In this document: one piece after another, positions 5,549 to 34,835 of the stretch
Position numbering within the stretch: position 1 is the stretch's first letter
Layout of the letters: each line of letters starts with the position of its first letter
Virus record (IMG/VR): IMGVR_UViG_3300031994_000065
Location: 17,295 to 81,294 of that record
DNA: 64,000 bases
Source: a virus
Taxonomy: Duplodnaviria; Caudoviricetes
Reading direction: 5' to 3' (one strand)
Position numbers and translations under genes: made by a program
Notes under the pieces: model-generated
What the model was told of the DNA's origin: nothing
The model's input: the letters and a program-made list of their open reading frames with translations, nothing else
The model's database searches: none

Positions 5549-5553
5549 TGATT

Positions 5554-5588
5554 AAAGAGAAGAATCTAAATCCAAGATTCTTCTCTTT
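5554..5588. terminator. Bidirectional terminator
   Basis: 14-bp stem AAAGAGAAGAATCT/AGATTCTTCTCTTT between convergent genes. Confidence 0.75.
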
Positions 5589-5598
5589 GACCCCGTTT

Positions 5599-7035
5599 TT
5601 AACCAACTCCGGGAAGCCCCTTCCCACCAGTAACTCCACCCGATGTGGATTGAACCAATAACGGTGACGGAACAACTTGAGTTTCAATCGCGCGTTTGAT
5701 TGCGTCGTCTATAGGTTCTTTCTTAACCATATAGATATTTGCTGTTAATGTCAACTGCTCGCCGTTGCGATTGAAGATGAAATCCGTTTTTCTTATTCTG
5801 TAATACCCGCTGTAATTTGGATCGATGTTGGAATCGAGATAATGTAGGATAAATTCCTTATTGGGGGTTAGCGCCCACATATATGGATCAAACACAGTCA
5901 TCCGGACCGTGATGTTTCCTTCTTGTATATCGTTAGCGTATTGAGTCTGCATATAAGGATTCGCGTTAGCGTTGTTATCGACTCGCGTGTTTCCTTTACC
6001 ACGTTGCTCTCCAGTCCCTTCAATATGAGTTGGAGCGTTGGTCTTTGCATTTAATGCGGTCAAGTTATTCCCCATTATGTGGTCATTGATTGCCGCAGGA
6101 TTATGCATTGTAACACGATGTGGGTCAGGGAAAATGTAATACTCTTTTCGTTCATCACAGGTTGTAGTACCAGACAGCCAACTTTCTGACAGTTTCGTTT
6201 TATTGACAGTGAATATAGTAGTCGGGTACTCACCTTCTTCAACACAGTCTGGATGTCCAGTCTTATTCATGATATATACACAGCGGTAATCGAAAAAAGT
6301 TAACGTACCAGTTTGATGCATTCCGTATATATCAGAAAGATACTGGAATAAATTCAACAGGTTTTGAGGTTGAATAATGCATTGGTCTATCGGATCTTTG
6401 TTATCTGACGGACTCATGAGTATTGCATCGAATCCGTTCTTAGATAACATATCCGCACAGATTGTAGGAATATCTGTATTTGAATAAACTTTGTTAACTA
6501 CGTTCTTGCTGTTGACCAAATCTCTCTCGACGTAGAAATAGTAGCTTACACGTTCTCTCACGTCTGCCGGCATATTTTTACCGCCAAGATCATTAACGCT
6601 TCCACCAGCGGCAGCAATATTCTGTAAATCATTCACGGTCATATTGTAAATAGCCGCATCCATAAACGGAACGTTGCTTGCGATTACCGGAATGAAAATC
6701 GTGTCGAATACTGTTTCGCTACTGACGGGTTCAGTACGAGAACCGGAACCTGACACGTCATAACCTTCACATCTGAGAGCGATATGGAATTTGACCTCAT
6801 TTCGACGAACTTCAATGAATTCTTTGACTTTTGGATTGACGACGAAATGGATCATAAGCATCGGGTACAAATTATTGTCGTAATCTTTGCCGATATACAT
6901 CTCGCTTATTGAACCTGGGACCATATCAACAGGTCCTTCAAGTTCCGGTGCCAATAACTCAAATTTTGAGATACGGTAACGATAGAGTTTATGAGACATC
7001 GCAGCGACTTCTTTTTCGTACAGCTCTTTTACCAT
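5599..7035 (-). CDS. Putative baseplate hub/tail structural protein
   Basis: 478 aa, SD AAGGAGG; beta-rich; C-terminal LTPNKEF...YSGYYRI pattern typical of gp27-like hubs. Confidence 0.45.
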   Translation of the reverse strand: MVKELYEKEVAAMSHKLYRYRISKFELLAPELEGPVDMVPGSISEMYIGKDYDNNLYPMLMIHFVVNPKVKEFIEVRRNEVKFHIALRCEGYDVSGSGSRTEPVSSETVFDTIFIPVIASNVPFMDAAIYNMTVNDLQNIAAAGGSVNDLGGKNMPADVRERVSYYFYVERDLVNSKNVVNKVYSNTDIPTICADMLSKNGFDAILMSPSDNKDPIDQCIIQPQNLLNLFQYLSDIYGMHQTGTLTFFDYRCVYIMNKTGHPDCVEEGEYPTTIFTVNKTKLSESWLSGTTTCDERKEYYIFPDPHRVTMHNPAAINDHIMGNNLTALNAKTNAPTHIEGTGEQRGKGNTRVDNNANANPYMQTQYANDIQEGNITVRMTVFDPYMWALTPNKEFILHYLDSNIDPNYSGYYRIRKTDFIFNRNGEQLTLTANIYMVKKEPIDDAIKRAIETQVVPSPLLVQSTSGGVTGGKGLPGVG

Positions 7036-7080
7036 TCAAATCTCCTCCTTTACAAAAAAGTTAGAGAGCATAAATTTTGG

Positions 7081-7148
7081 GAAAAAGAATCCGCACCGCA
7101 TTTGTTGAATGCGGCGTCCGATACCGTAATACGGCGCGGACTCTTTTT
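7081..7148 (-). terminator. Branched 3' structure/terminator (copy 1) after a cassette-driven gene
   Basis: Closing stem AAAGAGUCCGC/GCGGAUUCUUU, two internal hairpins, U-tail; homologous to 16071-16133. Confidence 0.7.
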
Positions 7149-7152
7149 GGTT

Positions 7153-7590
7153 TTAAGCTTCGACGAGATTGATGTGGATCAATTTTTGCGAATTGTTGAA
7201 ATCGTCAATCATTTTTTCAAAGCGGGTTTTAACAACCGGTTTTTCGACGAGTTCGAAATACCAGCGTTCGAAACCGTTGTCGATTGACGGGGTCGCATAA
7301 AACGCGTTGAGTTTCTCGATCGCTGTTTCCAGCGAATCAACGCGCATGTCAACGACCGGTCCCAAAGCCGCTTTGGACAGTGTTACCTGTCCTTTGCTTT
7401 TCCAGAGAGGGTTGACGCTGAAGTAACGCGCTTTTCTCGTGGCGAAGCAGGGGAACCAGTTGCCGTTGTCGTTTTCCGCAATGATTGCAACATCGAGTTG
7501 TTTGGCTTTGTTGTCGTGCAGGTCGACAAAACCATTCAACATTGCGAACGTTGCGATTGCGATTGCCGAAGTCTTTTCCATGATAAACAT
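7153..7590 (-). CDS. Hypothetical early protein (cargo of cassette A)
   Basis: 145 aa, SD AAGGAGG inside the repeated leader. Confidence 0.8.
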   Translation of the reverse strand: MFIMEKTSAIAIATFAMLNGFVDLHDNKAKQLDVAIIAENDNGNWFPCFATRKARYFSVNPLWKSKGQVTLSKAALGPVVDMRVDSLETAIEKLNAFYATPSIDNGFERWYFELVEKPVVKTRFEKMIDDFNNSQKLIHINLVEA

Positions 7591-7710
7591 CCTCCTTAAA
7601 GATGTGGATCGTAGGTTTTCGTCAATTTAGTACAAGAGAACTCCTACTAAACTCTCATACACCACGATAATATATATTCATAGGTGGGGGCGATGTCAGA
7701 TCGGAAAATT
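7591..7710 (-). promoter_or_regulatory. Repeated early expression cassette, copy A (type 1)
   Basis: CTGACA-N17-TATATATTAT, then leader GAGAGTTTAGTAGGAGTTCTCTTGTACTAAATTGACGAAAACCTACGATCC and SD; near-identical to 15874-15985 and 16715-16834. Confidence 0.9.
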
Positions 7711-7748
7711 AGGTATATTGCTATAATACATGAAAAAGATAGATAACA

Positions 7749-7772
7749 AAGGAGGGAACTAAACCCCTCCTT
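7749..7772 (-). terminator. Terminator of the exonuclease gene
   Basis: AAGGAGGG/CCCTCCTT stem at the gene end. Confidence 0.55.
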
Positions 7773-8901
7773 AAAATAATGATTTTTTCGAACGTGCAGA
7801 ATATTGATTCAGTTCGACGACATTAATTGGACTCATCTCGAAATATTTAGAATTCAGATTTTTCAATGCGTCATTCTCATACTTATCCACAAGCTGTTTC
7901 GTTATGTTGAGTTGTTGCGGTTCTGAGACCATGCCAAGTTGTCTGTCTAAATCGACGCACATGATACTGTTAGCAATTCGCTCTTTGTTATCATCATTAG
8001 GACCGTCTTTGATTGCCATTATAAGGTGTTCTAATCCAATTATTTCAGCTTCACTTATATCCAGCTCTTTGAACAATTTGTGTAATCTCTTGTATATGGT
8101 TTTCCATCCACAACCTTTGATCTTTCCGATACCGCGACGTTTATCTCCAACTATGGCAAGAATGAAAGTAATCAGGTATGCAGGAAGTTTGTGTGAATTC
8201 TTTATATCGTGTTTCTCTCTGATGATGGTAAAAAGATTCTCTTTGGTTACTATGTAACTTTCGTCACCTTTTGGATACATAACCAAGAAGTTCTTGTTGA
8301 CGTATTGCAAATCGTATTCGTCTCTGGTTATCAAAATATTCAATTGACCATCGAGTGCTTTAGAGTTGCATAACAACAGAGGAACGAGAGAACTTTCGAG
8401 TCTATTTGATGTTACCAAATATACACCTTCCACATAACCCACTATGGTTCTGAGAGCTTTGATGACAGACTCCAGAACCATATTAGTTGCCTCGTAGTTT
8501 GGATTGTCGGTGTAATCGTAAATGAATCTCTCGCGATAGTGTTTAAGAAACATCGTATTATTCAGTGTCGTGTATTTATCGTATTCATTCATGAATAGAA
8601 CGATATTAGTCTTGATTCTGTTTTTGGTAAAGAATCGACGATAATGCCCGGCAAGATTCAGAATGTTACTGATAATGGAAAAATGAAAGTTCTTGGTTTC
8701 AGTTTTATCCATAGAAAGAATGAATTCTTCTACGGTTTGGTTATGTATGCAATGAATAATTGATTCGAGATTGATGAATATATTTACTCGATCTATTACT
8801 TCTCTAATACCAACAGAACCAAATAGAAGATTCATTTTTTCGAACTTAATCTTGTGAGCATTGAATATCTTATCAATCGTTTCAGATGAACTTGAAATCA
8901 T
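7771..8901 (-). CDS. 5'-3' exonuclease / flap nuclease (T4 RNase H-like)
   Basis: H3TH-like motif GDKRRGIGKIKGCGWKT; acidic residues in LESSLV and ITRDEYD. Confidence 0.7.
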   Translation of the reverse strand: MISSSSETIDKIFNAHKIKFEKMNLLFGSVGIREVIDRVNIFINLESIIHCIHNQTVEEFILSMDKTETKNFHFSIISNILNLAGHYRRFFTKNRIKTNIVLFMNEYDKYTTLNNTMFLKHYRERFIYDYTDNPNYEATNMVLESVIKALRTIVGYVEGVYLVTSNRLESSLVPLLLCNSKALDGQLNILITRDEYDLQYVNKNFLVMYPKGDESYIVTKENLFTIIREKHDIKNSHKLPAYLITFILAIVGDKRRGIGKIKGCGWKTIYKRLHKLFKELDISEAEIIGLEHLIMAIKDGPNDDNKERIANSIMCVDLDRQLGMVSEPQQLNITKQLVDKYENDALKNLNSKYFEMSPINVVELNQYSARSKKSLF

Positions 8902-8930
8902 TTCAATCCCTTCTTCAGATAAAAAATATT

Positions 8931-8951
8931 GGGCGGGAAAGGTTCCCGCCC
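8931..8951 (-). terminator. Intrinsic terminator
   Basis: GGGCGGGAA/TTCCCGCCC stem with downstream T-run on the minus strand. Confidence 0.65.
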
Positions 8952-8976
8952 TTAACGTGTGTTTCCTTGTCAGATT

Positions 8977-9864
8977 TTATTTCGTCGTGATGTGTTCGAT
9001 GATTTCGCGGATGTCACTGCCGCCATTGCCGAGTTCGCGCAAACGTGCGACTCGGTACATCACATTGCTGCCTTGCTGAGCTGTATCGAGCAGAATGACA
9101 CGGTAAGCTCTGTTGTGCAAGAACAGCGCACTCAGAACGGCGTCCGGGTTGAGTTCGATATAGCAAAATGCTCTGCCGTTTTTGTCGCGTTTCTGAGACT
9201 CGTTCACTACGAGTTTGCTCGTATCGACAAACGGTTTGACAAGCTCTTTCAATTTTGCATCCAAACGAACGTGTGCGCCACGCGCTTTGCCGCCGAGCAA
9301 TTCGAGTTCGATGTCGTTAGCCGAGCGACCATTCACGACAAGATGTTCCATCTTCGGAAAGATGAGATACATCTTGGGAATGTCGTTCAGTACTGCAGCG
9401 CCATCCCCGAAATAGATGTAGCGGTAACCGTGATGCTCGAAGTATTTTTCGAAATACGTCGAAATGTCGCGACTCGTGAACGTGAAGATCGACCCACTGG
9501 GATCGAGTCCGAGACGATTGTCGTTCGCGCGGTTCCCAATGACACATCCGCCTTCGTAGTTATACAAACCATTCGGATCGCTCACGTCGGATTGTGGACG
9601 AGTGAAAGGTTTACCACCTCCGTCTTTCGGACGTTGCGGTTGCGGATTCGGCTGACGCTGTTCGCGCTGTTGTTGACGCGGTTGATGTACTTGCTGCTTG
9701 GGTTTCGGAGTAGGTTCAGGTTTAACCACCGGCTCTGCCTCCTCTTCTTTTTCGAATTCGTCGTTGTCTTCAAACGGATCGGGCAATTTGCTCGCTGCCG
9801 ATTTGACCGTGCTTTCTTCGCCGACTGCACGGTACAAGCGAATTTCCTCGCTGCTTACTTCCAT
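8977..9864 (-). CDS. Hypothetical early protein with Pro/Gln-rich N-terminal linker
   Basis: 295 aa, SD AAGGAGG, early promoter at 9909-9918. Confidence 0.8.
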   Translation of the reverse strand: MEVSSEEIRLYRAVGEESTVKSAASKLPDPFEDNDEFEKEEEAEPVVKPEPTPKPKQQVHQPRQQQREQRQPNPQPQRPKDGGGKPFTRPQSDVSDPNGLYNYEGGCVIGNRANDNRLGLDPSGSIFTFTSRDISTYFEKYFEHHGYRYIYFGDGAAVLNDIPKMYLIFPKMEHLVVNGRSANDIELELLGGKARGAHVRLDAKLKELVKPFVDTSKLVVNESQKRDKNGRAFCYIELNPDAVLSALFLHNRAYRVILLDTAQQGSNVMYRVARLRELGNGGSDIREIIEHITTK

Positions 9865-9908
9865 GAGTAATGCGCCTCCTTCTTTAATTTGTGGTCGTAA
9901 CCGAGTTT

Positions 9909-9918
9909 ATAATATATA
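9909..9918 (-). promoter_or_regulatory. Early promoter core TATATATTAT
   Basis: Exact match to the motif found 9 times upstream of minus-strand genes. Confidence 0.7.
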
Positions 9919-9993
9919 CTTAGAAATCGCGTTAAAATACAGCCACTCCTATAGTTAGTTGTGACTGCATTTATAATAGATTAGCGATTCCTT

Positions 9994-11040
9994 TTATCTG
10001 TTGACTTTTGCAAAATTTCTTTCCATAAGTGACCTAACTTGCGGAGCCCAGTTATAGTTATCCGGGCAGTAGACGGGGTTGATCGAACTGACCGTATCTA
10101 AGCCGCGTGCAAAATAACACTCATTGATAAGTTGCCCGAATGCATCGATATTTTCTTTTTTCGAGCTGTAACTTAATCCCATCATTCCGAAAAGGTTATT
10201 ATCATTCAACGCCATAAATGAAGTCCCATGACCGCTTTCGAGTTGTGCAACAGCCAAAGCAAATACGGCATTGACTCCGTATGTGGATTCCATTTCGTAG
10301 AACACATGACCTAACCCTTCGAGACCGGTTCCGGCAACAATCGATTCCAGTTCATCCATACTCAATCCACATCGTTCGGTTATTACGTCTGAAAGCGGAT
10401 AAACCGGTGGAATAAGGTTGACTCTGTAATGTTCGATTTTGCCACTGCTAAGAAACGGTTTGACGTGTTCATAGTAATACGAACTGGGATAGTAATCGAC
10501 TTTAACGAATCGTTTTTCAATATATGCTGCTTCGCCGATGCAATAGAAGTTGCTGTTGTAGATTAACGGAACAATCTCGTATGTATTGTACTTGTCTAAT
10601 TGTATCGGTTTGTCGTCTTCAGCAGGCTGTTTGTAACATATCGCGTCGAGTTCGTTTCGAGTGAATAACACGCCGACGATTTTTTCTGTCGAAGGCTTCT
10701 CAAATTTGTCAAGTTCGCAGTACGCTCTGTATTCGCCAGCTACTCCCCATTGTGGATTAATGGGGCTGACCGAGATAGCAGTACCACTAGGAAGCGTGCC
10801 AATGAGTCGAGCCGAAGAATCGGGTTCGGCATACATCGGAACATCTTGTGTAGAGACGCAAACCAAGTCTGCAAATTTGTCTATTTCTACAAGGGGTTCC
10901 GCTTCCGCAACGTTTGTCTGAACAATCTGTTCATCTGTCGCCGGATTGACTCGAGGATTGAAGAAGTTGTGATTGATTCCGGCTCCAATCAGCATCGCAC
11001 CAGTTACACAGATCGCCGCGATTAGATGTTTAGTATACAT
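9994..11040 (-). CDS. Cell-wall hydrolase: N-terminal signal/TM, SH3b-like domain, glucosaminidase (GH73-like) domain
   Basis: YGVNAVFALAVAQLESGHGTS...NNLFG motif; SH3-like MYAEPDSSARLIGTLPSGT; late promoter at 11069-11080. Confidence 0.8.
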   Translation of the reverse strand: MYTKHLIAAICVTGAMLIGAGINHNFFNPRVNPATDEQIVQTNVAEAEPLVEIDKFADLVCVSTQDVPMYAEPDSSARLIGTLPSGTAISVSPINPQWGVAGEYRAYCELDKFEKPSTEKIVGVLFTRNELDAICYKQPAEDDKPIQLDKYNTYEIVPLIYNSNFYCIGEAAYIEKRFVKVDYYPSSYYYEHVKPFLSSGKIEHYRVNLIPPVYPLSDVITERCGLSMDELESIVAGTGLEGLGHVFYEMESTYGVNAVFALAVAQLESGHGTSFMALNDNNLFGMMGLSYSSKKENIDAFGQLINECYFARGLDTVSSINPVYCPDNYNWAPQVRSLMERNFAKVNR

Positions 11041-11283
11041 TAGTGGATTCCTCCTTTGAGATTGAGTTTACCACTATGTCCGCAGCTTTTAGGAAATAAC
11101 CGTATCTTATTTTGCTTAAATCAAGCAATATTTGAGTTACACCAAACCAATTATTAAAATTTCATTAAAAATGTACTGGTCAAGATATATACATCGAATC
11201 ATTGCGTGTATTCTGATGTGAATATCGGCTGATTTGGGCTGAAGACAAAGCGATAATACACTACACAGAAAGAAGGTGAAGAA

Positions 11284-12594
11284 ATGGGTCAATTATTACG
11301 AGGACAGATGTTCGGAACAGGTTTTGAGAAGCAAATTTATCATGATAATCATTCTGAGTTCGAGCAGAAAGTCCATAGCCAGTATGCGAAATATCTCAGT
11401 GAACTTCCAATATTCACTGAATACTTTCACATAGTTAAAGCATTAACTACGGAAGATACCGGTTTGTTAAACATTGATAAATTGACTGGAGACAGCTCAC
11501 CGTTCAGATACAATCTCATTAAAGATTTTCCTCTGTTTGGTCTCGAGCAGATTCTTCTCGATATCGAAGATAATGATGATGTTGGTTTACAGACAAACTA
11601 CGAGGGTGAGGCAATAATTCTTCCACAAACTATAACTCCGTTACCGGATGATGCATTTATTGCAACAGCTCTTGGAAAGAAATGGTTTTTCCGTGTAATC
11701 GAAATTCATTACGACACAATTCTTGCGAAGAACTATTACAAGATTAATTTTGTGGTAAAAGGTGTCGATAATGGTTATTATTACGAGGATTATCTTAAGA
11801 AGGTAAACGACACATTCATTTGCGTTTACGACAATTATGGAACACAAGACGCATTTCTCATAAAGGAAGAGAATTATGATATTACTAATAAGCTCCAGAA
11901 AATGGCAGATGAATTATCAAGGAAATATCTCACTTTCTTCTATAATGAGAAATATAATGCGTTGATGGTTAAGAATCCACATGGTTACAATATGCTGTAT
12001 GATGCTTATGTGAATTACTTCTGTAATGAGCAATCGATATTTGCTCAGAATCCAAGAAACTTTTGGAATTATAAGTTCTATGTAGAAACCAGACCGGAAT
12101 TTGAGTTCTTCTATAACGCAAACTCAATTCAATCGGTTGTCATTAACAAAGATTTGGAATTGATTCAATCACCAAGATTTATGCGGTATTATGATACTAT
12201 TCCCACTTTCACCGATTCAATATTCCAGTTCTATGGAGATTTTGACACTTCCGGAATAACGATAAGTGAACGACATATAAATCCATTTGGTAGACAGATT
12301 CATCCGTTAATACCTCAAGATTTGTTTGAAGCAATCTGCTCTAATGGAAACGTTGATACCACAAATTTGATCTACAATGTCTTGGTGAAATACATCAATA
12401 ATGATATTGAAAGTGTAGGAAAACTTTTAGGTAATTTCAATGACAAAATTCGCGTTAGACCCACATACTTGGATTATGTCTTGATACCTCTATTCCTGTA
12501 CATTCTTTATCAATACAAGAAGTCTGTTACCAAGACAAACAATAATTATGTTGAGAATGAACAGCTTCGACAAAAACTTAAAATCTCACACTGA
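11284..12594 (+). CDS. Conserved jumbo-phage virion structural protein
   Basis: 436 aa; TGDSSPFRYNLIKDFPLFG motif recalled from phiKZ/AR9-like virion proteins. Confidence 0.5.
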   Translation: MGQLLRGQMFGTGFEKQIYHDNHSEFEQKVHSQYAKYLSELPIFTEYFHIVKALTTEDTGLLNIDKLTGDSSPFRYNLIKDFPLFGLEQILLDIEDNDDVGLQTNYEGEAIILPQTITPLPDDAFIATALGKKWFFRVIEIHYDTILAKNYYKINFVVKGVDNGYYYEDYLKKVNDTFICVYDNYGTQDAFLIKEENYDITNKLQKMADELSRKYLTFFYNEKYNALMVKNPHGYNMLYDAYVNYFCNEQSIFAQNPRNFWNYKFYVETRPEFEFFYNANSIQSVVINKDLELIQSPRFMRYYDTIPTFTDSIFQFYGDFDTSGITISERHINPFGRQIHPLIPQDLFEAICSNGNVDTTNLIYNVLVKYINNDIESVGKLLGNFNDKIRVRPTYLDYVLIPLFLYILYQYKKSVTKTNNNYVENEQLRQKLKISH

Positions 12595-12597
12595 AGA

Positions 12598-12939
12598 ATG
12601 GAGGAATTTGAGATGCTTAAGACATTACGTTCACAATTGGCAACTAAAAAGGCAGATGCTTCGTTTGAAGGATTTGTCCTTGATGCTATTGAACGCGCAC
12701 CTCAGAGAGATATCATGCTCGAAGAATGCGATGCTCCGGAATGTTGGCATGAAGACGACGATTACTGCGATGAAGATATTGGCAAGTTGATCGATGCTCT
12801 TCCCGAATCCGACATCGATTTGGATAATGAAGCGATTATTCAAGGAATTATTCGTGGTCGCGACGAACAGGGTAACGAGAAAGATATGTCAGTGGAAGAA
12901 TGTTGCGAGGCGTATATACCGCCCACTGAAGAAGTTTAA
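12598..12939 (+). CDS. Small acidic hypothetical (virion) protein
   Basis: 113 aa, cotranscribed, very acidic. Confidence 0.65.
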   Translation: MEEFEMLKTLRSQLATKKADASFEGFVLDAIERAPQRDIMLEECDAPECWHEDDDYCDEDIGKLIDALPESDIDLDNEAIIQGIIRGRDEQGNEKDMSVEECCEAYIPPTEEV

Positions 12940-12954
12940 GAAAGGATGAAACTA

Positions 12955-13464
12955 ATGGAAACTGATATGACTACATTCGTAGACAAGAAACTTGTAAAAG
13001 TTACAGATCGTGGTCCGATTATGCCGCTCGGTGGAATCTATGGACCCACTCTTCCTCAGATTATGACCGTTAAAACGATTGCGATTCTCTTGCAAAAGGG
13101 TTATCACGTTACGGAAATTCTGAATAATAAGTCTGAAGTTAAACTCAGTCTTTCGAACTACAATGTCGACATCAATGGCGATGGTGGTGAAGGTCTTAAA
13201 AAGGTTAAGAAACCTGATGAAGATATTAAGCCTCTGCCGAAGAAAAATGCCAAAGTCGAAACTCCTGCGCCTGAAGCAAAAACTGAAAAACCTGCTGAAA
13301 AAGAATCGGTTAAAGTTGAGACTGCCGTCGTTGAGAATAAGATTACCGTATCAGCGGCTGGAGGTAAGGCTGAAGCCGATTCTAAAAGGAATGGTAATGA
13401 CGCTGGAGGTCTTATGAGTACCAAAAAAAATAAGCCTAAGGCGGACGAACTTACCTCTAAGTAA
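12955..13464 (+). CDS. Hypothetical protein with Lys/Glu-rich tail
   Basis: ATG 12955 after AAAGGA; followed by a terminator. Confidence 0.7.
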   Translation: METDMTTFVDKKLVKVTDRGPIMPLGGIYGPTLPQIMTVKTIAILLQKGYHVTEILNNKSEVKLSLSNYNVDINGDGGEGLKKVKKPDEDIKPLPKKNAKVETPAPEAKTEKPAEKESVKVETAVVENKITVSAAGGKAEADSKRNGNDAGGLMSTKKNKPKADELTSK

Positions 13465-13481
13465 TTTGGGATTAAAACGAG

Positions 13482-13526
13482 AAAAAAAAACCGGGGAGCA
13501 ATCTGATAGAATTTGCTCCCCGGTTT
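13482..13526. terminator. Bidirectional terminator
   Basis: AAACCGGGGAGCAA/TTGCTCCCCGGTTT stem with a 9-T tail on the minus strand. Confidence 0.8.
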
Positions 13527-13553
13527 AACCGTTTTTTGAACTGCTGCTACTGA

Positions 13554-13589
13554 TTAGCGGCGAGTTCCACAAGTGCTATTGTCACCCAT
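13554..13589 (-). CDS. Candidate 11-aa micro-peptide MGDNSTCGTRR
   Basis: SD AAAGGAGG 8 nt upstream of ATG; lies between an early promoter and a terminator. Confidence 0.35.
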   Translation of the reverse strand: MGDNSTCGTRR

Positions 13590-13635
13590 GGTCGTCACCT
13601 CCTTTCAGTAACAGGAGGGTGGTTTTACGTTTCAT
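13582..13635 (-). CDS. Candidate 17-aa leader peptide MKRKTTLLLLKGGDDHG
   Basis: SD GGGGGAGG upstream; overlaps the SD hairpin of the 11-aa ORF. Confidence 0.35.
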   Translation of the reverse strand: MKRKTTLLLLKGGDDHG

Positions 13636-13700
13636 TTACCTCCCCCCACATTTATTAGATTTAAGTCGCAGCTACTAATTTCACTGCGTCTTATACCTAT

Positions 13701-13733
13701 ATAATATATATTTTCGATTCTAAGATATGTCTA
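13701..13733 (-). promoter_or_regulatory. Early promoter TAGACA-N17-TATATATTAT
   Basis: Same architecture as the cassette promoters. Confidence 0.7.
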
Positions 13734-15120
13734 AATCGATTTCTCCAGTTCTACTGACAGAAATACCTTCAATTGTCGATTCCAAAACCGTTTTGGTTCT
13801 GTAGAATGTGATTCTCCGTACAGGCATCTTCGGCAATTTTCTTTCTCTGGAACGTAAGAAAATGTCAGATATATGAATGAAGTAATTCTTGTGAACATCG
13901 TTATCAAACATTTTCACCATAGTTACGATTGACTTTTCTTCGTCTCGATACACATGAACCGGGATATATATCGTATCTTTCATCTTCACTGCTACTTTGA
14001 ATGCAGTATCTCGCTCAATATCGTCATTGTCTCCACATATGTAATATCCGTCTATGATGCCTCTGCGGTCCATTTCCAATACATCGTGCGCAACACTGGT
14101 TCCCTCTTTAATTGGTGGGAATCCAAAATTTTCGACCATGTTTAACAGAGCCATATCACATATCTTATTGACGATGCGATAATTGCTTAAGAATTGATGG
14201 ATTTCTTCATCGGAGAAATTTCGAAAGTTTGAAGGTCTGGCTAAGAAACCGAAATCATTCATATTACTGAGATTAATTCCATTAGTAGCCCAATCTCTTG
14301 GATTTAGAAGTTCATCTTTCATTCGCCAGTCATATTCGCTAGTGAGTGGCCATTGGTCATCATCCGGTTTACTTTGTCTAATAACAAAGTCAATATCGTC
14401 ACACATCTTAGTGATTATCGGAGCATCAATATGCTTCTTGATTTCACCAAATGCATTTATTAACATATCTTTGTTAGCAACTCGCCGAATCTTTTCTAAC
14501 ATATTGGCGTCGTACACCGATTTTGTATAGAAAAAATTTCTGGTTATGTCGTAGCAAAGTTTCAGGTCTGTGTCATAGACGTAATCCGAAATTCTTGTGG
14601 TGTTAAATCGTCCGTTCAGAATATAATCTTTATCGAGATAATTCTGAGCGGATTTCTTAATAGCTTGGTTTATTGCGTCATTTAATCTGTCACTAAACTG
14701 ACATGAATGATGTTGATGCGCTGGATCTACCAGTTGATTCCTGAAGATATTAGACCATTTATCAAATGTGAGCACACCTTCAGCATAATCAGTCGCGTTC
14801 ATTATGACGTGTTTTTCTTCCATTGTGATGGTTGGGGCTTCTAAGTAATCTATAGAAGACGATTCTGCTGCGATAATATCTTTATCTGCGTATGGTTTAA
14901 ATGCCGAATATTTCTTCAGTTTGACTTTCATGTTGTATTGTTTGGCGAGTCTGTTTATATTCGCAGCTAATTGCTTACGCTTTTTTGGTGGGCATGTATG
15001 GAAGTACGCAATCGCACTACGGACGTGATTTTCGTCGGGCATTGGAAAAGCTCTATCTTCCGGAAGACCGAACTGATCTGCGGGGAGTTCTTTTCTTTGA
15101 GCACTAGAAAGTTTAGGCAT
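13720..15120 (-). CDS. Hypothetical virion protein with N-terminal DUF6582-like domain
   Basis: FGLPEDRAFPMPDENHVRSAIAYF motif; late promoter at 15138-15149. Confidence 0.65.
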   Translation of the reverse strand: MPKLSSAQRKELPADQFGLPEDRAFPMPDENHVRSAIAYFHTCPPKKRKQLAANINRLAKQYNMKVKLKKYSAFKPYADKDIIAAESSSIDYLEAPTITMEEKHVIMNATDYAEGVLTFDKWSNIFRNQLVDPAHQHHSCQFSDRLNDAINQAIKKSAQNYLDKDYILNGRFNTTRISDYVYDTDLKLCYDITRNFFYTKSVYDANMLEKIRRVANKDMLINAFGEIKKHIDAPIITKMCDDIDFVIRQSKPDDDQWPLTSEYDWRMKDELLNPRDWATNGINLSNMNDFGFLARPSNFRNFSDEEIHQFLSNYRIVNKICDMALLNMVENFGFPPIKEGTSVAHDVLEMDRRGIIDGYYICGDNDDIERDTAFKVAVKMKDTIYIPVHVYRDEEKSIVTMVKMFDNDVHKNYFIHISDIFLRSRERKLPKMPVRRITFYRTKTVLESTIEGISVSRTGEIDLDIS

Positions 15121-15180
15121 CGTTTATCACCTCTTTTTAGTGCTTTGTCGCGAGGGGTAAAAATAGGTGAAATTCGGAGA

Positions 15181-15206
15181 AAAAAAAACCACGCGGTTTT
15201 GCGTGG
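15181..15206 (-). terminator. Intrinsic terminator after cassette B cargo
   Basis: CCACGC/GCGTGG stem plus 8-T tail on the minus strand. Confidence 0.75.
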
Positions 15207-15216
15207 CTGAATTGTT

Positions 15217-15873
15217 TCAATATGCGAAAGTCATAGGAATACCCATGTCTTTCAACATGTTGAAACAGCTGATGAAACCTTCTCTTGGTTTGAGATACTC
15301 AAACCGAAAGAAGACTTTCCAATTTTCGCCGTAGCGTTTCTTGTAAACTTTTTCCGCTTCTCCGGATTCGAAATTCGTGACGTAGTTTTCGTACGCCTTT
15401 TTCGAAATCCAGAACCCCACGATTTTTTGCGGAGCGACAAACGCCTCGGTGTAGGCGCTGTATTCGTCGTCGAGTTTTTCATAGTCGTCAACGATGAACT
15501 CCTCACGAATTGATGGGTAACGCTTCCCATCAATCGTGTAGCTCCCGCAATCAACGGAGGCCATTAACGACGTTTCGCCTTTCACATAAACGCCTATTAC
15601 GCCGAGTCCTCCGTTCATGAGCCTAGATTCAGGCCCGGGTTTCGAGCAACTTATCTCGGCTCCGGTGCCAAGAATGGTCAACAGTTTTTCGAGTGCGACC
15701 GCAGGCGACTGCGATCTGTTGACAGCGTTGAGGCCGTGCGCCCAGACCACTCCGTCAGTTCCTCTCGGAACATGACGTGATTTGAGCGCCTTAGCGTTTT
15801 CGAACGCCTTTCTCTCCTCGTCGTTCAAATCATCTGATTTCACACCATTGACGTAAATGCTCATTTCAAACAT
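15217..15873 (-). CDS. Hypothetical early protein (cargo of cassette B)
   Basis: 218 aa, SD within the repeated leader. Confidence 0.8.
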   Translation of the reverse strand: MFEMSIYVNGVKSDDLNDEERKAFENAKALKSRHVPRGTDGVVWAHGLNAVNRSQSPAVALEKLLTILGTGAEISCSKPGPESRLMNGGLGVIGVYVKGETSLMASVDCGSYTIDGKRYPSIREEFIVDDYEKLDDEYSAYTEAFVAPQKIVGFWISKKAYENYVTNFESGEAEKVYKKRYGENWKVFFRFEYLKPREGFISCFNMLKDMGIPMTFAY

Positions 15874-15985
15874 CCTCCTTAAAGATGTGGATCGTAGGTT
15901 TTCGCAATTTAGTACAAGAGAACTCCTACTAAACTCCTATACACCACGATAATATATACTTATGGGAGAGGGTAATGTCGGAACG
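15874..15985 (-). promoter_or_regulatory. Repeated early expression cassette, copy B (type 1)
   Basis: CCGACA-N17-TATATATTAT plus conserved leader and SD. Confidence 0.9.
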
Positions 15986-15998
15986 TAAAAAGGAGAAA

Positions 15999-16041
15999 AA
16001 GCCAGAACCTATTAAGGTTCTGGCTTTGTCACGCTTCTTGT
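15999..16041. terminator. Hairpin terminator, duplicate of 17044-17085
   Basis: AAGCCAGAACCT/AGGTTCTGGCTT followed by TGTCACGCTT in both copies. Confidence 0.75.
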
Positions 16042-16070
16042 TGTGGGAGGTAAAAAATATCTCCTTGAGG

Positions 16071-16133
16071 GAAAAAGAATCTGTGCCGCAAATGTGTGCG
16101 GTGTCTGTGCCGATTTACGACACAGATTCTTTC
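16071..16133 (-). terminator. Branched 3' structure/terminator (copy 2)
   Basis: AAAGAAUCUGUG/CACAGAUUCUUU stem, CCGCA/UGCGG hairpin, U-tail; covaries with 7081-7148. Confidence 0.7.
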
Positions 16134-16138
16134 GTGAA

Positions 16139-16714
16139 TCATTTCCAGCCTTTTGCGCAGATAACCTTCGGAATATATTTCCAATACTGCACCGATTGCG
16201 CGCAGGTGTAAAGACGTATTGTCTTGTCAGCCCAACACACAAGCTTTCCATTGTTATATGGAAGTAGTATTGTTTCATATAAACTGATAGTGTTTTTGTC
16301 GCGTTTGAAACTGCGCCCGTTGAAATGGAAGTCTTGATGGCTACCATTACAACAAGAGATGAGTGTGTACTCTCCCTTGTCGAATTTGTTCGCCATCGAG
16401 AAATGATTTTCTTTCTTGCCTTCGATAATGAATTCTGCGAATCCTCCGTGAACGCAAGCAACCAGCCCCTGATCTGTTACTAACGGGACTGCTTCCATCT
16501 GGACGGCGAACCTTTTCAAGAATGACCATATGGTCAATTTCTTTCCAGTATCCGCGTATCTCACATCGGTGTACAACGACGCAGTTCCGTTTTTGACTTT
16601 GAAGTACGCGATAACGTACATCGCGCCGAACAGAATTGCCCCTCCTGTGAGACCCCAAATGACGTTAATAACGGAGACGATCGAATTTACCAGAGCGTTT
16701 TTCATTTCAAACAT
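16139..16714 (-). CDS. Hypothetical early protein with N-terminal transmembrane segment (cargo of cassette C)
   Basis: 191 aa; hydrophobic SIVSVINVIWGLTGGAILFGAMYVIAYF. Confidence 0.8.
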   Translation of the reverse strand: MFEMKNALVNSIVSVINVIWGLTGGAILFGAMYVIAYFKVKNGTASLYTDVRYADTGKKLTIWSFLKRFAVQMEAVPLVTDQGLVACVHGGFAEFIIEGKKENHFSMANKFDKGEYTLISCCNGSHQDFHFNGRSFKRDKNTISLYETILLPYNNGKLVCWADKTIRLYTCAQSVQYWKYIPKVICAKGWK

Positions 16715-16834
16715 CCTCCTTAAAGATGTGGATCGTAGGTTTTCGTCAATTTAGTACAAGAGAACTCCTACTAAACTCTCATACACCACGATAATATATA
16801 CTTAGGAGGGTGGGCGATGTCAGATTGAAAAATT
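16715..16834 (-). promoter_or_regulatory. Repeated early expression cassette, copy C (type 1)
   Basis: CTGACA-N17-TATATATTAT plus leader identical to copy A over the core. Confidence 0.9.
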
Positions 16835-16855
16835 ATATCGTGTCAACATATCATT

Positions 16856-17034
16856 AGATGCATCTATAATACTAATGTGCGGGCAATAGCTCCACTTTAA
16901 GGGAAGATAGGTTATTGGTGACAAACGCCTAAGTTGTACTCGGCTTATATAGTAGACTTCGGATTAACCCGCCTCGAAGTCGCCGCGTAACAGAATTGGC
17001 GGCTAGGCCTATCTTCCTGGGAGTCGTTTTTTTT
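16856..17034 (+). ncRNA. Candidate structured ncRNA (multi-way junction), family unknown
   Basis: Late promoter at 16845-16856; 12-bp closing stem GGAAGAUAGGUU/GGCCUAUCUUCC, four internal hairpins, G-U pairs favour the plus strand; ends in an 8-T run; no ORF. Confidence 0.65.
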
Positions 17035-17043
17035 GCGGACAAT

Positions 17044-17070
17044 AAGCCAGAACCTTGTAGGTTCTGGCTT
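17044..17070. terminator. Terminator after nrdD
   Basis: 12-bp stem AAGCCAGAACCT/AGGTTCTGGCTT. Confidence 0.75.
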
Positions 17071-17091
17071 TGTCACGCTTTTTGTAGTTTG

Positions 17092-19449: not shown

Positions 19450-20052
19450 TTATTTGTAATTCTTTCTGAATTCTGGGAGATACCAAAGAGCTTTTCCTCT
19501 GAGAACGTCTCCACCGCGAGAACCGTCTATTGCATGAGGATTAAACTTTGGGGATTCTGAAGTTTCAAGATATTCCAAATCCCAGCGTTCACAAGTTGAT
19601 TTCGGTCCATATTGTTCATGACACCACAAACCATCTTCATTATCTGCAGCTTCTCCATGTGTCATTACATGACCTGGATTGATTGTGAGCCATAATCCTT
19701 CAGCTACTGCACAAACAGCCAAAGCCATACTTTCAATCTGTGCAGCGGTTGGAGGATTCGGACCTAAGTCTTTGGTATCCGCATATACCGCACAACATAT
19801 TGTGATGTTGATAGCTCCACTGTTACGTTTGTATGTTCCGGCGATAACATCAGCAAAATTATCTGTACTGGCATAATATTTGCCATTCTTATCGATATTG
19901 ATATGGTAGTCGTCAGACTTATTATCGTACCAACCAGCAGTCCAGTGGAGATAAATCTTTGGTTCTCTACCAAGTGCTTTTGCTTTATCCCAAACTTCTT
20001 CTCGGGCAGCAGAAGCGAGTTGATAGATTTCTTTAAGTGTAACTTCACGCAT
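19450..20052 (-). CDS. N-acetylmuramoyl-L-alanine amidase (Amidase_2-like endolysin)
   Basis: IYLHWTAG, YHINID, RNSGAINI, VMTHGE motifs; late promoter at 20070-20081. Confidence 0.8.
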   Translation of the reverse strand: MREVTLKEIYQLASAAREEVWDKAKALGREPKIYLHWTAGWYDNKSDDYHINIDKNGKYYASTDNFADVIAGTYKRNSGAINITICCAVYADTKDLGPNPPTAAQIESMALAVCAVAEGLWLTINPGHVMTHGEAADNEDGLWCHEQYGPKSTCERWDLEYLETSESPKFNPHAIDGSRGGDVLRGKALWYLPEFRKNYK

Positions 20053-20105
20053 TTTCGTTCACCTACCTTTATGAGATTGTCTTGAATATTAAGAGGTTAG
20101 AAATG

Positions 20106-20134
20106 AAAAAAAAATCTCGCCCATATGAGCGAGA
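20106..20134 (-). terminator. Terminator after cassette D cargo
   Basis: TCTCGC/GCGAGA stem plus 9-T tail; homologous to 20957-20988. Confidence 0.7.
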
Positions 20135-20147
20135 CCGCAGCGGAGCG

Positions 20148-20636
20148 TTATTGCTCCAAGAGTTCATTGAGATAAACGACATCTTCAAACGAAAGATTGT
20201 TTTCCTTGATTATGGCGCGAGCCCAGTTGATGTAGCCGCCGAAGCAATACTGATCGTCAAAATAGTAGCGAATACCGTTGATGTCGACATACTCGCATTC
20301 TATTTCATCATCGAGCGTTTTGAACCATTGGCTTCCGACACTGATGCGGTTGGCGCGTTCGATCCGGGTAGGATTCGTTGCTCCATTGCAAATTATTTCG
20401 GCCGCCTGTTTCGGTGTTACGATGTCAACATCAAAGATGCCAACCTCGTGCCAATCATCGCTCACAACAGCATACTTTTTGTAATATGCCGTGCTGATGT
20501 AGTAATGCGGATGACTATGGCACTCATGGAAGTTCGGGCACCGGGATCCGATGCACTCACCATCGAAATCCTCTGGTTCAGTGCATTGAAAGTTGAGTAT
20601 TTGACCCAGCTCGTATCCGAAATCGTCTGTGGTCAT
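20148..20636 (-). CDS. Hypothetical early Cys/His-containing protein (cargo of cassette D)
   Basis: 162 aa; SD AAGGAGG 8 nt upstream. Confidence 0.75.
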   Translation of the reverse strand: MTTDDFGYELGQILNFQCTEPEDFDGECIGSRCPNFHECHSHPHYYISTAYYKKYAVVSDDWHEVGIFDVDIVTPKQAAEIICNGATNPTRIERANRISVGSQWFKTLDDEIECEYVDINGIRYYFDDQYCFGGYINWARAIIKENNLSFEDVVYLNELLEQ

Positions 20637-20640
20637 TCCA

Positions 20641-20751
20641 AATCCCTCCTTAAGGGATCGTAGGTTTTTTCATCTTAGTAGTGAGCTGCCTACTTAACTC
20701 TTCTACGCGTATATAATATATAAATGTGGGTGGGGGTGATGTCGGATTGAA
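20641..20751 (-). promoter_or_regulatory. Repeated early expression cassette, copy D (type 2)
   Basis: CCGACA-N17-TATATATTAT plus leader GAGTTAAGTAGGCAGCTCACTACTAAGATGAAAAAACCTACGATCC; identical core to copy E. Confidence 0.9.
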
Positions 20752-20815
20752 ATTAAACCCTTCTTAAAAAAGGTAATTCGATTCCGATGATGAATCATAT
20801 AAGGAGGCAAACATC

Positions 20816-20995
20816 ATGAAATTTGGTGGTATTACACTTGGTGGTCGGAACATTATCGTACCAACCAGCAGTCCAGTGGAGATAAATCTTTGGTTCTCTA
20901 CTAAATGCTTTTGCTTTACCCCATACTTCTTCTCGGGTATTGCGAGGTTGGAAAACAAAAAAAAATCACGCCCGTATAATGAGCGTGACCGGTGA
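20816..20995 (+). pseudogene. Chimeric remnant: 5' end of the 21684 gene fused to an amidase fragment
   Basis: MKFGGITLGG start, then 20852-20937 matches 19921-20006 at 82/86 nt; its late promoter is degraded. Confidence 0.85.
20957..20988 (-). terminator. Terminator after cassette E cargo
   Basis: TCACGC/GCGTGA stem (compensatory variant of TCTCGC/GCGAGA) plus 9-T tail. Confidence 0.7.
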
Positions 20996-21010
20996 GCGTG
21001 ACGTGACCAG

Positions 21011-21496
21011 TTAGAAGAACCATCCCATTTTGCGGGCGGTTTCGCGGAAACGTTCCCAATTTTCGTCGCGGATCGTTGATACCGCTTTGTCTTTGACGCT
21101 TTCTACAATCGCATCGTAGACATCGCAGTCCCACTTATCGGGCAACTTGATCTCATCGTCCCAATCCCAGTTCTCAATAAATGTGATCTGGTTGCGGCGG
21201 ATGATGTCATCATGGCCTGATTCCGGCGGAAAGATCTCGTAGTACTCATCGTACATTTCGTCGAGCTTCGACGAGCTGTAATAGTCGAGATGATACGTCG
21301 AAACGAACGCCTTCACGTCCATCTCATCTGAGATGAGCGCTTGGAAATCATCGAGATAATCCGAATGGACCGTCTCGAAAAACTCCCAGTTTTTCGCATA
21401 ACGTTGATCGTATGGGAGCACTTTCTTGACCATCTTGTCCTTGAGAGAGTCAAGAAGCGCCCTTTCTCTCACGTCGAGGTCGCTGTACTTAATCAC
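21011..21496 (-). CDS. Hypothetical acidic early protein (cargo of cassette E)
   Basis: 161 aa, GTG start 8 nt after AAGGAG. Confidence 0.75.
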   Translation of the reverse strand: MIKYSDLDVRERALLDSLKDKMVKKVLPYDQRYAKNWEFFETVHSDYLDDFQALISDEMDVKAFVSTYHLDYYSSSKLDEMYDEYYEIFPPESGHDDIIRRNQITFIENWDWDDEIKLPDKWDCDVYDAIVESVKDKAVSTIRDENWERFRETARKMGWFF

Positions 21497-21500
21497 TCTA

Positions 21501-21620
21501 CCATCTCCTTACGAGGCGAGGATCGTAGGTTTTTTCATCTTAGTAGTGAGCTGCCTACTTAACTCTTCTACGCGTATATAATATATAAATGTGGGTGGGG
21601 GTGATGTCGGATTGAAATTA
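21501..21620 (-). promoter_or_regulatory. Repeated early expression cassette, copy E (type 2)
   Basis: Same promoter and leader as copy D. Confidence 0.9.
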
Positions 21621-21630
21621 AACCTCTCTT

Positions 21631-21642
21631 AACAAGAAGGTA
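21631..21642 (+). promoter_or_regulatory. Late promoter AACAAGAAGGTA
   Basis: AACA-N6-TA; identical 12-mer on the minus strand at 36614-36625. Confidence 0.6.
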
Positions 21643-21683
21643 ATCCGATTCTAATGATGAATCATATAAGGAGGCAAAACATC

Positions 21684-22247
21684 ATGAAATTTGGTGGTAT
21701 CACCCTTGGTGGGAAACTTGGTGGTTGGAACATTATCAACCAACCTGCAACTTCACTTCCTCAGGCTCTCGCCTCGGCAAAGCCCATTTTGTTTGGGTCG
21801 ACATTTACCCCGATTTGGCTCGTTGCGGATCAGATTGTGAATGGTACTAACTATTTGCTGGTCGCAGAGGCAGTTAGTACTACCTTGAAGACAATCAAAA
21901 GAATCGTCGGTATTATCGTTAACATTCCGGCTGGTTCGTTTGATGGTGAAGGCGCGAAAGTCGTCGAGGTTATCGAAGATGACGAGCTTGTCGAAGGAAC
22001 CGATCCCGAAGATAAAGTCAAGGAATACTTCGACTCGATTATCGAACCTGCAGGCGAAAAACTCACTGGCGTCGGTATTACACCCGTTCTTTACATGGGC
22101 AAGAAAGTTACCAAAGGCGTCAATCACGTTGTCGTTGCTCAACGCCGCATGATTTCTTCAGACGCGGATCCGGAAGCTCTCATCATTGAGTTCAATGTCT
22201 TCAATGGAAAAGCAACTCTCTACTCAATGGAAAAAATTGGTGTGTGA
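21684..22247 (+). CDS. Hypothetical protein with two tandem homologous domains
   Basis: FTPIWLVADQIVNGTNYLLVA is repeated as ITPVLYMGKKVTKGVNHVVVA; SD AAGGAGG. Confidence 0.75.
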   Translation: MKFGGITLGGKLGGWNIINQPATSLPQALASAKPILFGSTFTPIWLVADQIVNGTNYLLVAEAVSTTLKTIKRIVGIIVNIPAGSFDGEGAKVVEVIEDDELVEGTDPEDKVKEYFDSIIEPAGEKLTGVGITPVLYMGKKVTKGVNHVVVAQRRMISSDADPEALIIEFNVFNGKATLYSMEKIGV

Positions 22248-27438: not shown

Positions 27439-27541
27439 CCCTTACTTATTTACCGCGTGCAGTAAAATATATAAGGGCTGGCGTATCTAAGGCAGAGATT
27501 CTAGTCTCTGCCTAAATAGCCGCTTAAAGGGAGGTGATGAT

Positions 27542-27808
27542 ATGAGAGTAAGACCTGTCGTTGGTGAAGTCTACAAACATTTCAAAGGTAAGGACTATAA
27601 AGTCATTGCCGTTAATGTGCGTAACTCCAACGAAAACGACACAAAGACTTATGTTATTTACGAAGCTTTGTACGAAAATCATCCGGTGTTCTTTAGAACG
27701 ACAGATGAATTCGTGTCTCCAGTGGACAAGGAAAAATATCCGGATGCCACACAAGAATTCCGTTTTGAGAAAGTTAACCGTGTAGAGGATGAAATCGTAT
27801 GGGATTGA
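27542..27808 (+). CDS. DUF1653 family protein
   Basis: VYKHFKGKDYKVI...YVIYEALY...EFVSPVDKEKYP. Confidence 0.85.
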   Translation: MRVRPVVGEVYKHFKGKDYKVIAVNVRNSNENDTKTYVIYEALYENHPVFFRTTDEFVSPVDKEKYPDATQEFRFEKVNRVEDEIVWD

Positions 27809-34652: not shown

Positions 34653-34808
34653 GAAAAAGACGCGCACAAGGCAGACATTATCATGCGGAGCTTCCGAAAT
34701 CCCATGTTGTCTGCCTATGTGGTGGTCACTAAGACCGTCCCCTTTAAAGATCGATAAACCACAATGATTACCCAGCAAGAATCAGGATCATTGCTCCTGA
34801 TTCTTTTT
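34653..34808 (+). ncRNA. Candidate structured intergenic RNA (strand uncertain)
   Basis: TATATATTCT promoter-like site at 34638-34647; stems AGGCAGACA/TGTCTGCCT and TGTGGT/ACCACA; 11-bp hairpin with T-run at 34777-34808. Confidence 0.45.
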
Positions 34809-34835
34809 ACATATTTTGTATACTCGATGTTCTTT

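Follow-up and report, generated by a model that had tools for sequence, protein, structure and literature searches.

Terminator stems of Bacillus subtilis measure 9 ± 2 bp on average, and TerR, a terminator of the Bacillus plasmid pLS20, owes its resistance to processive antitermination to a stem of 15 bp (PMC10325885). In transcription attenuators, a strand of the terminator can pair with either of two partners but not with both, and the partner that is transcribed first wins kinetically. In the lambda sib/tI retroregulator, a terminator hairpin lies within a longer duplex that is complete only once the downstream sequence has been transcribed. In T4-type phages, short early-promoter and stem-loop motifs (PeSL) flank unrelated orphan genes in a plastic region (PMC2839356, PMC4122927), and these motifs mediate gene shuffling (PMC4122927). 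Here, we describe an RNA element of ~65 nt that follows two genes in a 64,000-nt stretch of phage DNA, i.e., positions 17,295 to 81,294 of the IMG/VR record IMGVR_UViG_3300031994_000065, and compare it with these systems; this whole stretch is called the window, and positions are counted from its first letter unless another contig is named. The termination signals for the multisubunit RNA polymerases (RNAPs) of phiKZ/AR9-like jumbo phages are, to our knowledge, poorly characterised.

The window is part of an 81-kb record with a completeness of 32% (CheckV), which was examined together with two IMG/VR contigs, G001 (54 kb) and G002 (79 kb), ~190 kb in all. The record, G001 and G002 belong to one lineage, and the record's last 174 nt match, at 100% identity, both G001 27408-27581 and the beginning of G002. 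A 478-aa open reading frame (ORF) is distantly related, with 25% identity, to a hypothetical protein found in the Bacillus jumbo phages AR9 and PBS1, and ORFs for split beta and beta′-like RNAP subunits are present in the lineage; judged from its sequence, the phage is an uncultured AR9/PBS1-like jumbo phage. According to the folding models, the element is a strand-specific RNA 3′-end signal of two early cassettes, with a long-stem terminator hairpin as its ground state. Beyond this, we favour, at an even chance, the reading that it is a long-stem, delayed-folding and probably leaky terminator or 3′-end hairpin within a shuffled regulatory frame.

Two copies of one 3′ element and their stable fold

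Copy 1 occupies 7079-7148 on the minus strand and consists of a 5′ arm (7148-7128), an apical insert (7127-7103), a 3′ arm (7102-7082, with the U-tract at 7086-7082) and a conserved CCC (7081-7079). Copy 2 occupies 16069-16133 on the same strand, with the 5′ arm at 16133-16113, the apical insert at 16112-16094, the 3′ arm at 16093-16073 (U-tract 16076-16072) and CCC at 16071-16069. The two copies, 7148-7079(−) and 16133-16069(−), can be aligned over 73 columns with 84% identity, and a 22-nt pattern common to their 3′ parts occurs exactly twice in the window, where 0 occurrences are expected, and twice in the whole record, while the lineage's other ~110 kb hold no copy. The stop codon of an ORF lies 4-5 nt upstream of each element (ORFs 7153-7590 and 16139-16714, both (−)), and the proteins of these two cassettes, A and B, are unrelated to each other (E 0.74). 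The elements are thus homologous although their genes are not, as the initial annotation of this DNA had claimed. Paralogy of the cassette genes is ruled out by the same comparison, and a dispersed repeat, such as a repetitive extragenic palindrome or one resembling a miniature inverted-repeat transposable element, is ruled out by the presence of two copies only, both tied to stop codons. An integron attC-like site was judged solely by eye, which revealed neither GTTRRRY-type core sites nor a nearby integrase.

For both copies, the minimum free energy (MFE) structure is a single 21-bp hairpin (−33.1 kcal/mol, z-score −5.84, for copy 1; −30.2 kcal/mol, z-score −7.96, for copy 2), which includes a 3-bp apical stem and in which pairing of the A-tract with the U-tract (5 A:U pairs) brings a core of 16-17 bp to the full length with 0 mismatches. 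The features of an intrinsic terminator are present, i.e., a G+C-containing hairpin just behind the stop codon, whose stem ends in GAUUC and is followed by UUUUU. On the plus strand, the same region folds less stably, at −26.1 kcal/mol (z −2.7) for copy 1 and −25.3 kcal/mol (z −3.6) for copy 2, compared with z −5.8 and −8.0 for the minus strand, because the G-U wobbles of the minus strand become A-C mismatches. This preference points to the RNA of the coding strand, in line with the annotated minus-strand element of terminator type. A function of the plus strand is unlikely, given its weaker fold, its A-C mismatches and the absence of any plus-strand gene that converges on either copy.

The element had been annotated as branched. 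However, the three-way junction reaches only −26.5 kcal/mol in copy 1 and −22.1 kcal/mol in copy 2, which is 6.6 and 8.1 kcal/mol weaker than the extended hairpin, respectively. The extended and branched folds are each 100% compatible with both copies. Along the 21-pair stem, the copies differ by 4 compensatory and 4 one-sided compatible changes, with 0 broken pairs. Two of the compensatory changes replace C-G by U-A in the closing stem, the covariation on which the annotation had been built and which holds, and the other two replace U-A by A-U in the upper stem. The latter pairs are unpaired in the branched model, whose two inner hairpins show 0 such changes.

A covariance model of the extended fold, applied to the two sister contigs, returned one weak relative (L015:2665-2714 (−), 14.4 bits, E 0.17). 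It follows a 73-aa ORF and forms a plain hairpin of 14 bp that shares the GGAUUCUUUUUCCCU tail and has no apical insert. Because the upper stem covaries and this plain relative lacks the insert, the extended hairpin is, on the modelled folds, the core structure, to which the tip of 19-25 nt is an addition. At the relative itself (L015:2665-2731 (−), equal to G002 22665-22731), a weak competitor is present upstream, a GGAUU that can pair with AAUCC in the 5′ arm of this relative and that resembles the GAUUC overlapping the stop codon before copy 2.

The wider searches were negative. In the window, Rfam gave nothing at the gathering score, and permissive thresholds yielded only chance hairpins (mir-2450 at 28.7 bits vs. 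a gathering score of 59). Exact and gapped patterns of the element had 0 matches in IMG/VR, and blastn against cultured phages gave no meaningful match. Pattern scans of metagenomes and of prokaryote genomes were scored with the covariance model for 80 of 107 and 80 of 99 matched stretches, respectively. Among those scored, the metagenome stretches, found by the stem-base pattern, reached at most 29 bits and had no inner motifs, and the best genome matches were plain palindromic terminators of bacterial metagenome-assembled genomes (MAGs), again without inner motifs; the best of the latter, from a Clostridia MAG (L135), scored 39.5 bits and has a 4-nt loop and a very similar stem sequence. For the cassette proteins, IMG/VR had no usable relatives, and the ENA/Logan assemblies contained, on contigs of up to 174 kb, homologues of the 145-aa gene (89-49% identity) and a single homologue of the 191-aa gene (60%). 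The covariance-model search that the initial annotation had called for thus gave no true homologue, either among related contigs or in public collections, and the word "conserved" holds only between the two copies, as these searches found no relative outside the lineage that carries the element.

The closest described counterpart of the extended hairpin is TerR. Both have a stem far above the Bacillus average (15 bp in TerR; 16-17 bp plus 5 A:U pairs here), an upstream A-tract and a downstream U-tract, and a place at the end of a transcription unit, and in both an interrupted U-trail (GAUUCUUUUU in the element) is tolerated. With ~15 bp or more and with A- and U-tracts, a threshold taken from PMC10325885, the stem is of the TerR type. 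Unlike the simple 7-nt loop of TerR, the loop of the element has 19-25 nt and carries decoy copies of both arms.

It is possible, though we doubt it, that the element is a plain, constitutive and strong long-stem intrinsic terminator, whose apical repeat is an accidental duplication without a role that is tolerated since the 21-bp hairpin wins at equilibrium. This would agree with the energies, since the extended hairpin beats the branched form by 6.6-8 kcal/mol and an open form by 10-15 kcal/mol, and with the plain long hairpins of similar stem in the Clostridia MAG and the sister contig. Long stems also make strong, antitermination-resistant terminators (PMC10325885). Moreover, they are general in this phage: the stems of other terminators of the lineage commonly have 12-18 bp, which suggests that the phage favours long stems in general. 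Across the ~190 kb, no uninterrupted stem linked to a T-run is longer than those of the two copies (21 and 20 bp, copy 2 having the longest), and no other convincing terminator hairpin has a loop of this size.

Decoy partners in the loop and the predicted order of folding

The 5′ arm is followed by two tandem units (direct repeats U1 and U2), which read GCCGUAUUACGGUAUCGGAC and GCCGCAUUCAACAAAUGCGGUGCGGA in copy 1 and GUCGUAAAUCGGCACAGAC and ACCGCACACAUUUGCGGCACAGA in copy 2. For the lower 5′ arm (X), the end of unit 1 (X′1) and the end of unit 2 (X′2) are alternative partners, and the upper 3′ arm has the start of unit 2 as an alternative to the upper 5′ arm. In copy 1, a first local hairpin (H1, 7116-7141 (−)) pairs X (GUCCG, 7141-7137) with X′1 (CGGAC, 7120-7116) and encloses a small hairpin at 7135-7123. 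A second one (H2, 7095-7115 (−)) pairs a decoy copy of the upper 5′ arm (GCCGCAUU, 7115-7108) with the upper 3′ arm (AAUGCGGU, 7102-7095), and the true partner X′2 (GCGGA, 7094-7090 (−)) comes directly after it. In copy 2, H1 (16104-16126 (−)) pairs UCUGUGUCG (16126-16118) with CGGCACAGA (16112-16104) around the loop UAAAU, and H2 (16080-16101 (−)) pairs CCGCA (16101-16097) with UGCGG (16090-16086), after which comes the distal X′2, CACAGA (16085-16080). An exact second CGGCACAGA is present at 16088-16080, and CACAGA occurs at both 16109-16104 and 16085-16080. The annotated choice between two partners for the 5′ strand is therefore present in each copy, namely between the two CACAGA of copy 2 and between CGGAC and GCGGA of copy 1.

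Between the copies, one and the same replacement, of CGGU(AU/G)CGGA by CGGCACAGA, is seen in both units, and it fits the C-to-U changes in X. A plain terminator does not account well for these parallel changes, nor for the preservation of the decoy complementarity in both copies despite 16-23% divergence. The loops of the inner hairpins, on the other hand, differ between the copies (UAUUA vs. UAAAU; CAACA vs. CACAUU).

The order of folding was followed by folding the growing transcripts as prefixes, with U-end minus 9/10 as the reference point, i.e., with 9 nt of RNA hidden in the polymerase as in the geometry of bacterial RNAP. The MFE structure of the prefixes is the tandem pair H1 and H2 (−23.7 kcal/mol in copy 1, −20.4 kcal/mol in copy 2) until the RNA reaches U-end minus 7-9, and in copy 1, H1 is the MFE fold of all prefixes until U-end minus 9. 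At U-end minus 9/10, a mid-stem terminator pair has an equilibrium probability of 0.03/0.00 for copy 1 and of 0.24/0.09 for copy 2, compared with medians of 0.87-0.999 after shuffling of the loop (0.94 or more in nearly all shuffles while the U-tract is still within the polymerase); values as low as the native ones were reached by 0 of 300 shuffles for copy 1 and by 4-5 of 300 for copy 2. When 26 long-stem T-run hairpins of the lineage were ranked at U-end minus 9, the two copies came lowest (0.02 and 0.07), and 19 of the 24 others had a probability of at least 0.92. The findpath barrier from H1 and H2 to the terminator stem is ~15 kcal/mol at U-end minus 9 and 4-8 kcal/mol with the entire U-tract free, a state in which the A-tract can act as a toehold.

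Since the copies are outliers both among loop shuffles and among the phage's other long-stem hairpins, the built-in alternative pairing is, within these folding models, real and unusual. The proximal and distal pairings of the initial annotation thus compete far more strongly than loop shuffles or the phage's other terminators would lead one to expect, and its wording that this is not a plain terminator is a fair reading, because the proximal fold is predicted to form first and to dominate until GAUUC has emerged. The same outlier position argues against a plain terminator, as does a second, ordinary terminator 40 nt past copy 2, which would be redundant if copy 2 were efficient, although it is also part of the frame of the next cassette.

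In the mechanism that we infer from the computed homology, strand specificity, extended fold, compensatory changes and decoy competition, the element would act as the RNA 3′-end signal of two monocistronic early-gene cassettes, and its tip would be an internal tandem duplication of the upper stem plus the 3′ strand, which provides a local decoy partner for each arm. During synthesis, H1 and H2 would fold first and leave the real 3′ strand and the U-tract single-stranded, and the switch to the 21-bp hairpin would take place only after GAUUCUUUUU has become free to pair with the A-tract. The decoys would in this way hold back the terminator stem, so that termination is probably only partial. Some polymerases would read on, into the 478-aa gene behind copy 1 and into the back-up terminator behind copy 2, and afterwards the blunt long hairpin would protect or mark the 3′ end of the cassette mRNA. 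The termination efficiency, the polymerase involved and any role in stability or processing are the conjectural parts of this scheme.

Several points weigh against the delayed-folding terminator. The rule of 9 hidden nucleotides was derived from bacterial RNAP and may not hold for phage polymerases. The energies are equilibrium nearest-neighbour estimates, and the findpath barriers are an upper bound only. With two copies and one weak relative, all covariation comes from n = 2, which is weak statistically, and shuffling of the pairs reaches the observed value in 23 of 500 cases. In addition, slippage may have produced the duplication, with the decoys tolerated and their likeness maintained by template switching instead of selection.

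The resemblance to transcription attenuators consists in the choice of one terminator strand between two partners, of which the first to be transcribed would win kinetically. Unlike in attenuators, the competitor of the element lies within the terminator loop rather than upstream, the element stands at the 3′ end of a gene rather than in a 5′ leader, and no recognisable sensor, i.e., a leader peptide, a tRNA, a ligand or a protein site, was found in it. These differences bear on the proposal, also made in the initial annotation, of a regulated terminator/antiterminator switch, in which a factor acting in trans (a protein, an RNA, a terminating ribosome or the identity of the polymerase) would tip the choice between the proximal and distal pairings. 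The mutually exclusive pairings of near-equal energy at the decision point stand, and further points in its favour are the stop codon close before the A-tract in both copies, the upstream GAUUC of copy 2, which overlaps the stop codon and can pair with GAAUC of the 5′ arm, and the presence of at least two polymerase types in the phage besides that of the host. The regulatory part is not supported: besides a sensor domain and a leader peptide, a T-box-like or riboswitch-like feature and an Rfam match are missing, there is only a second terminator to regulate past copy 2, the GAUUC competitor is not present in copy 1, and the inner hairpin loops are not conserved. We therefore consider such a switch improbable.

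A somewhat different idea, to which we give a small chance, does away with the sensor. As a kinetic terminator, the element would have an efficiency set by the speed and pausing of the polymerase, and it would thereby tell virion, non-virion and host RNAP, or early and late infection, apart. This would amount to a sensor-free timing of readthrough, with the late 21-bp duplex marking readthrough RNA for processing.

A related possibility, which we regard as unlikely, is that the element serves RNase III-type processing or retroregulation in the manner of lambda sib. The full duplex would then exist only in RNA that contains the whole U-tract, as readthrough or complete transcripts do, and would afterwards be cut, which would set the 3′ end and half-life of the mRNA. 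The continuous 21-bp duplex has about two helical turns, within the range of at least ~20 bp expected of such a site, the full stem requires a free U-tract, and its poor predicted formation during transcription favours a role after transcription; however, any long terminator hairpin would provide the same length of duplex. As in sib/tI, the terminator hairpin would be part of a duplex completed by downstream sequence. In contrast to sib/tI, the extra pairing of the element comprises only the A-tract and the U-tract, and the element lacks integrase-type regulatory logic. Overall, the element is a curious variant of an ordinary terminator signal and not a new kind of RNA.

Regulatory frames around the cassettes

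The cassette A gene (7153-7581 (−)) encodes an orphan protein of 142 aa and the cassette B gene (16139-16705 (−)) an unrelated orphan protein of 188 aa; neither has a Pfam or PHROG family. The first ATG of both ORFs (7590 and 16714), which would give 145 and 191 aa, abuts the Shine-Dalgarno sequence. The true starts are therefore likely the second ATGs (7581 and 16705), in agreement with the database copies, of which that of the cassette A protein also has 142 aa.

Both genes are preceded by the same 5′ module of ~130 nt, composed of an early promoter, a leader of ~70-80 nt and AAGGAGG. The module of cassette A lies at 7591-7711 (−), with an AR9-type early promoter (ATATATATTAT-N6-G, 7677-7660), a predicted start at G 7660 and the conserved leader with AAGGAGG, and that of cassette B lies at 16715-16835 (−), with the promoter at 16801-16784. 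The motif ATATATATTAT-N6-G occurs 10, 11 and 13 times in the three lineage records and 0 times in the reversed control, and it matches the early promoter consensus of AR9. This consensus, AAATATATATTAT-(6N)-G, is thought to be used by the injected virion polymerase (PMC5312081). In total, the 5′ module has five instances in the window (7591-7711, 15874-15993, 16715-16835, 20652-20752 and 21505-21617, all (−)) and 11 in the three records. One further gene, at 15217-15873, has a 5′ module of identical type and a different terminator. Since cassettes A and B match at both gene ends, their homology begins and ends at the borders of the ORF on either side. Within the module, the conserved blocks GAGTTWAGTAGG, TACT and AACCTACGATC are separated by variable segments that resemble covarying stems, and the module is a candidate structured 5′ leader.

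The 478-aa gene (5599-7035 (−)) starts 45 nt after copy 1, with no early promoter motif in between. The ordinary terminator behind copy 2 has a 13-bp stem (15998-16027 (−)) and is directly followed by the early promoter of cassette C (15959-15942). It belongs to a repeated module (ACAAnAAGCGTGAC, then a AAAGCCAGAACC...GGTTCTGGCTTT hairpin) that is found at 15998-16044 and at ~17045-17088 (−), the second hairpin, at ~17075-17045, standing after nrdD. Because one and the same terminator module sits after both nrdD and copy 2, the arrangement suggests that cassette B was inserted through a duplication of the terminator-promoter frame. Between the nrdD terminator and the promoter of cassette B, ~190 nt (16845-17034 (−)) are free of ORFs and contain a 10-bp complementary pair (gaagataggc ... 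gcctatcttc-like) with a U-run at the end; this segment may encode a small RNA.

Signs compatible with exchange are seen at other terminators. Early cassettes elsewhere in the sister contigs end in related two-hairpin terminators with fragments in common, and a 12-nt remnant is common to the terminators of two other cassettes. The stretch shared with the sister contigs (window 63827-64000, equal to G001 27408-27581 at 100% and also to G002 1-127) ends in a mosaic breakpoint beyond which the sequences are unrelated; its position is the exact end of the U-tract of a two-hairpin terminator, and the records come from different samples. In many terminators of the phage, GAATC/GATTC (GANTC) forms the stem base, directly ahead of the U-tract, as at 5552-5590, at 34777-34810, in the two copies (7128-7148/7082-7102 and 16113-16133/16073-16093) and at about 39800 of G001. 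This stem base could be a polymerase-specific termination or pause signal, an effect of a methylation site or a result of shared descent.

As with PeSL, unrelated orphan genes are bordered by short conserved modules of early-promoter and stem-loop type, within a plastic part of a large virulent phage, and mosaic breakpoints coincide with modules. We note two differences. First, the phage group and the polymerase are others, since the early promoter here is of the AR9 type, for a phage-encoded RNAP. Second, the promoter-leader and the terminator are separate here and lie at opposite ends of the ORF, whereas PeSL is one composite motif. Conserved early-promoter/stem-loop motifs around unrelated ORFs are thus shared with PeSL, but a composite terminator-promoter unit in a T4-type phage, with indel breakpoints at the motif among close relatives, is not, the one breakpoint seen being at a different terminator.

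This comparison raises the question of whether the DNA rather than the RNA matters, i.e., whether the 3′ hairpin and the 5′ promoter-leader form a recombination frame like the PeSL motifs (PMC4122927), in which both serve as patches of homology for ORF swaps and the RNA fold is secondary. The exact ORF borders on both sides, the 11 instances of the 5′ module in three records, the breakpoint at the end of another terminator's U-tract and the 12-nt remnant all agree with it. However, such a frame accounts for the spread of the element and not for its anatomy; the strand-specific G-U wobbles and the compensatory changes show selection or repair on the fold itself; no swap with a breakpoint inside the element was seen; and copy 1 has no adjacent early promoter. 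As the whole explanation, it appears rather unlikely to us. In the delayed-folding reading, recombination has a more limited part: the element would stand after unrelated genes because promoter-leader and terminator modules are shared frames that recombination shuffles.

The window further encodes NrdD, an endolysin, a terminase, a major head protein, a tail sheath protein, a DNA polymerase, GroEL and an SbcC-like protein. The last (61138-63759 (−)) resembles a subunit of a palindrome-specific nuclease, and the genome is rich in long inverted repeats. At 19921-21737, a tandem duplication of ~870-930 bp, with blocks 95-97% identical, comprises two early cassettes with genes of 161 and 162 aa. 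At 938-1122, within the ORF 317-1576, an in-frame array with a 24-nt period (GGCGGTGGTGACAGCGGTGACGGC) codes for a low-complexity segment rich in Gly, Asp and Ser.

If the decoys are a neutral duplication, the element is merely an unusually long terminator. If, on the other hand, it is a decoy-carrying terminator, it would offer a compact means, without any sensor, of fixing how much readthrough occurs or of making this depend on the polymerase, and it would be a useful part for synthetic biology. The shared frames around orphan genes suggest that AR9-like phages shuffle their early genes through regulatory modules, as T4-type phages do.

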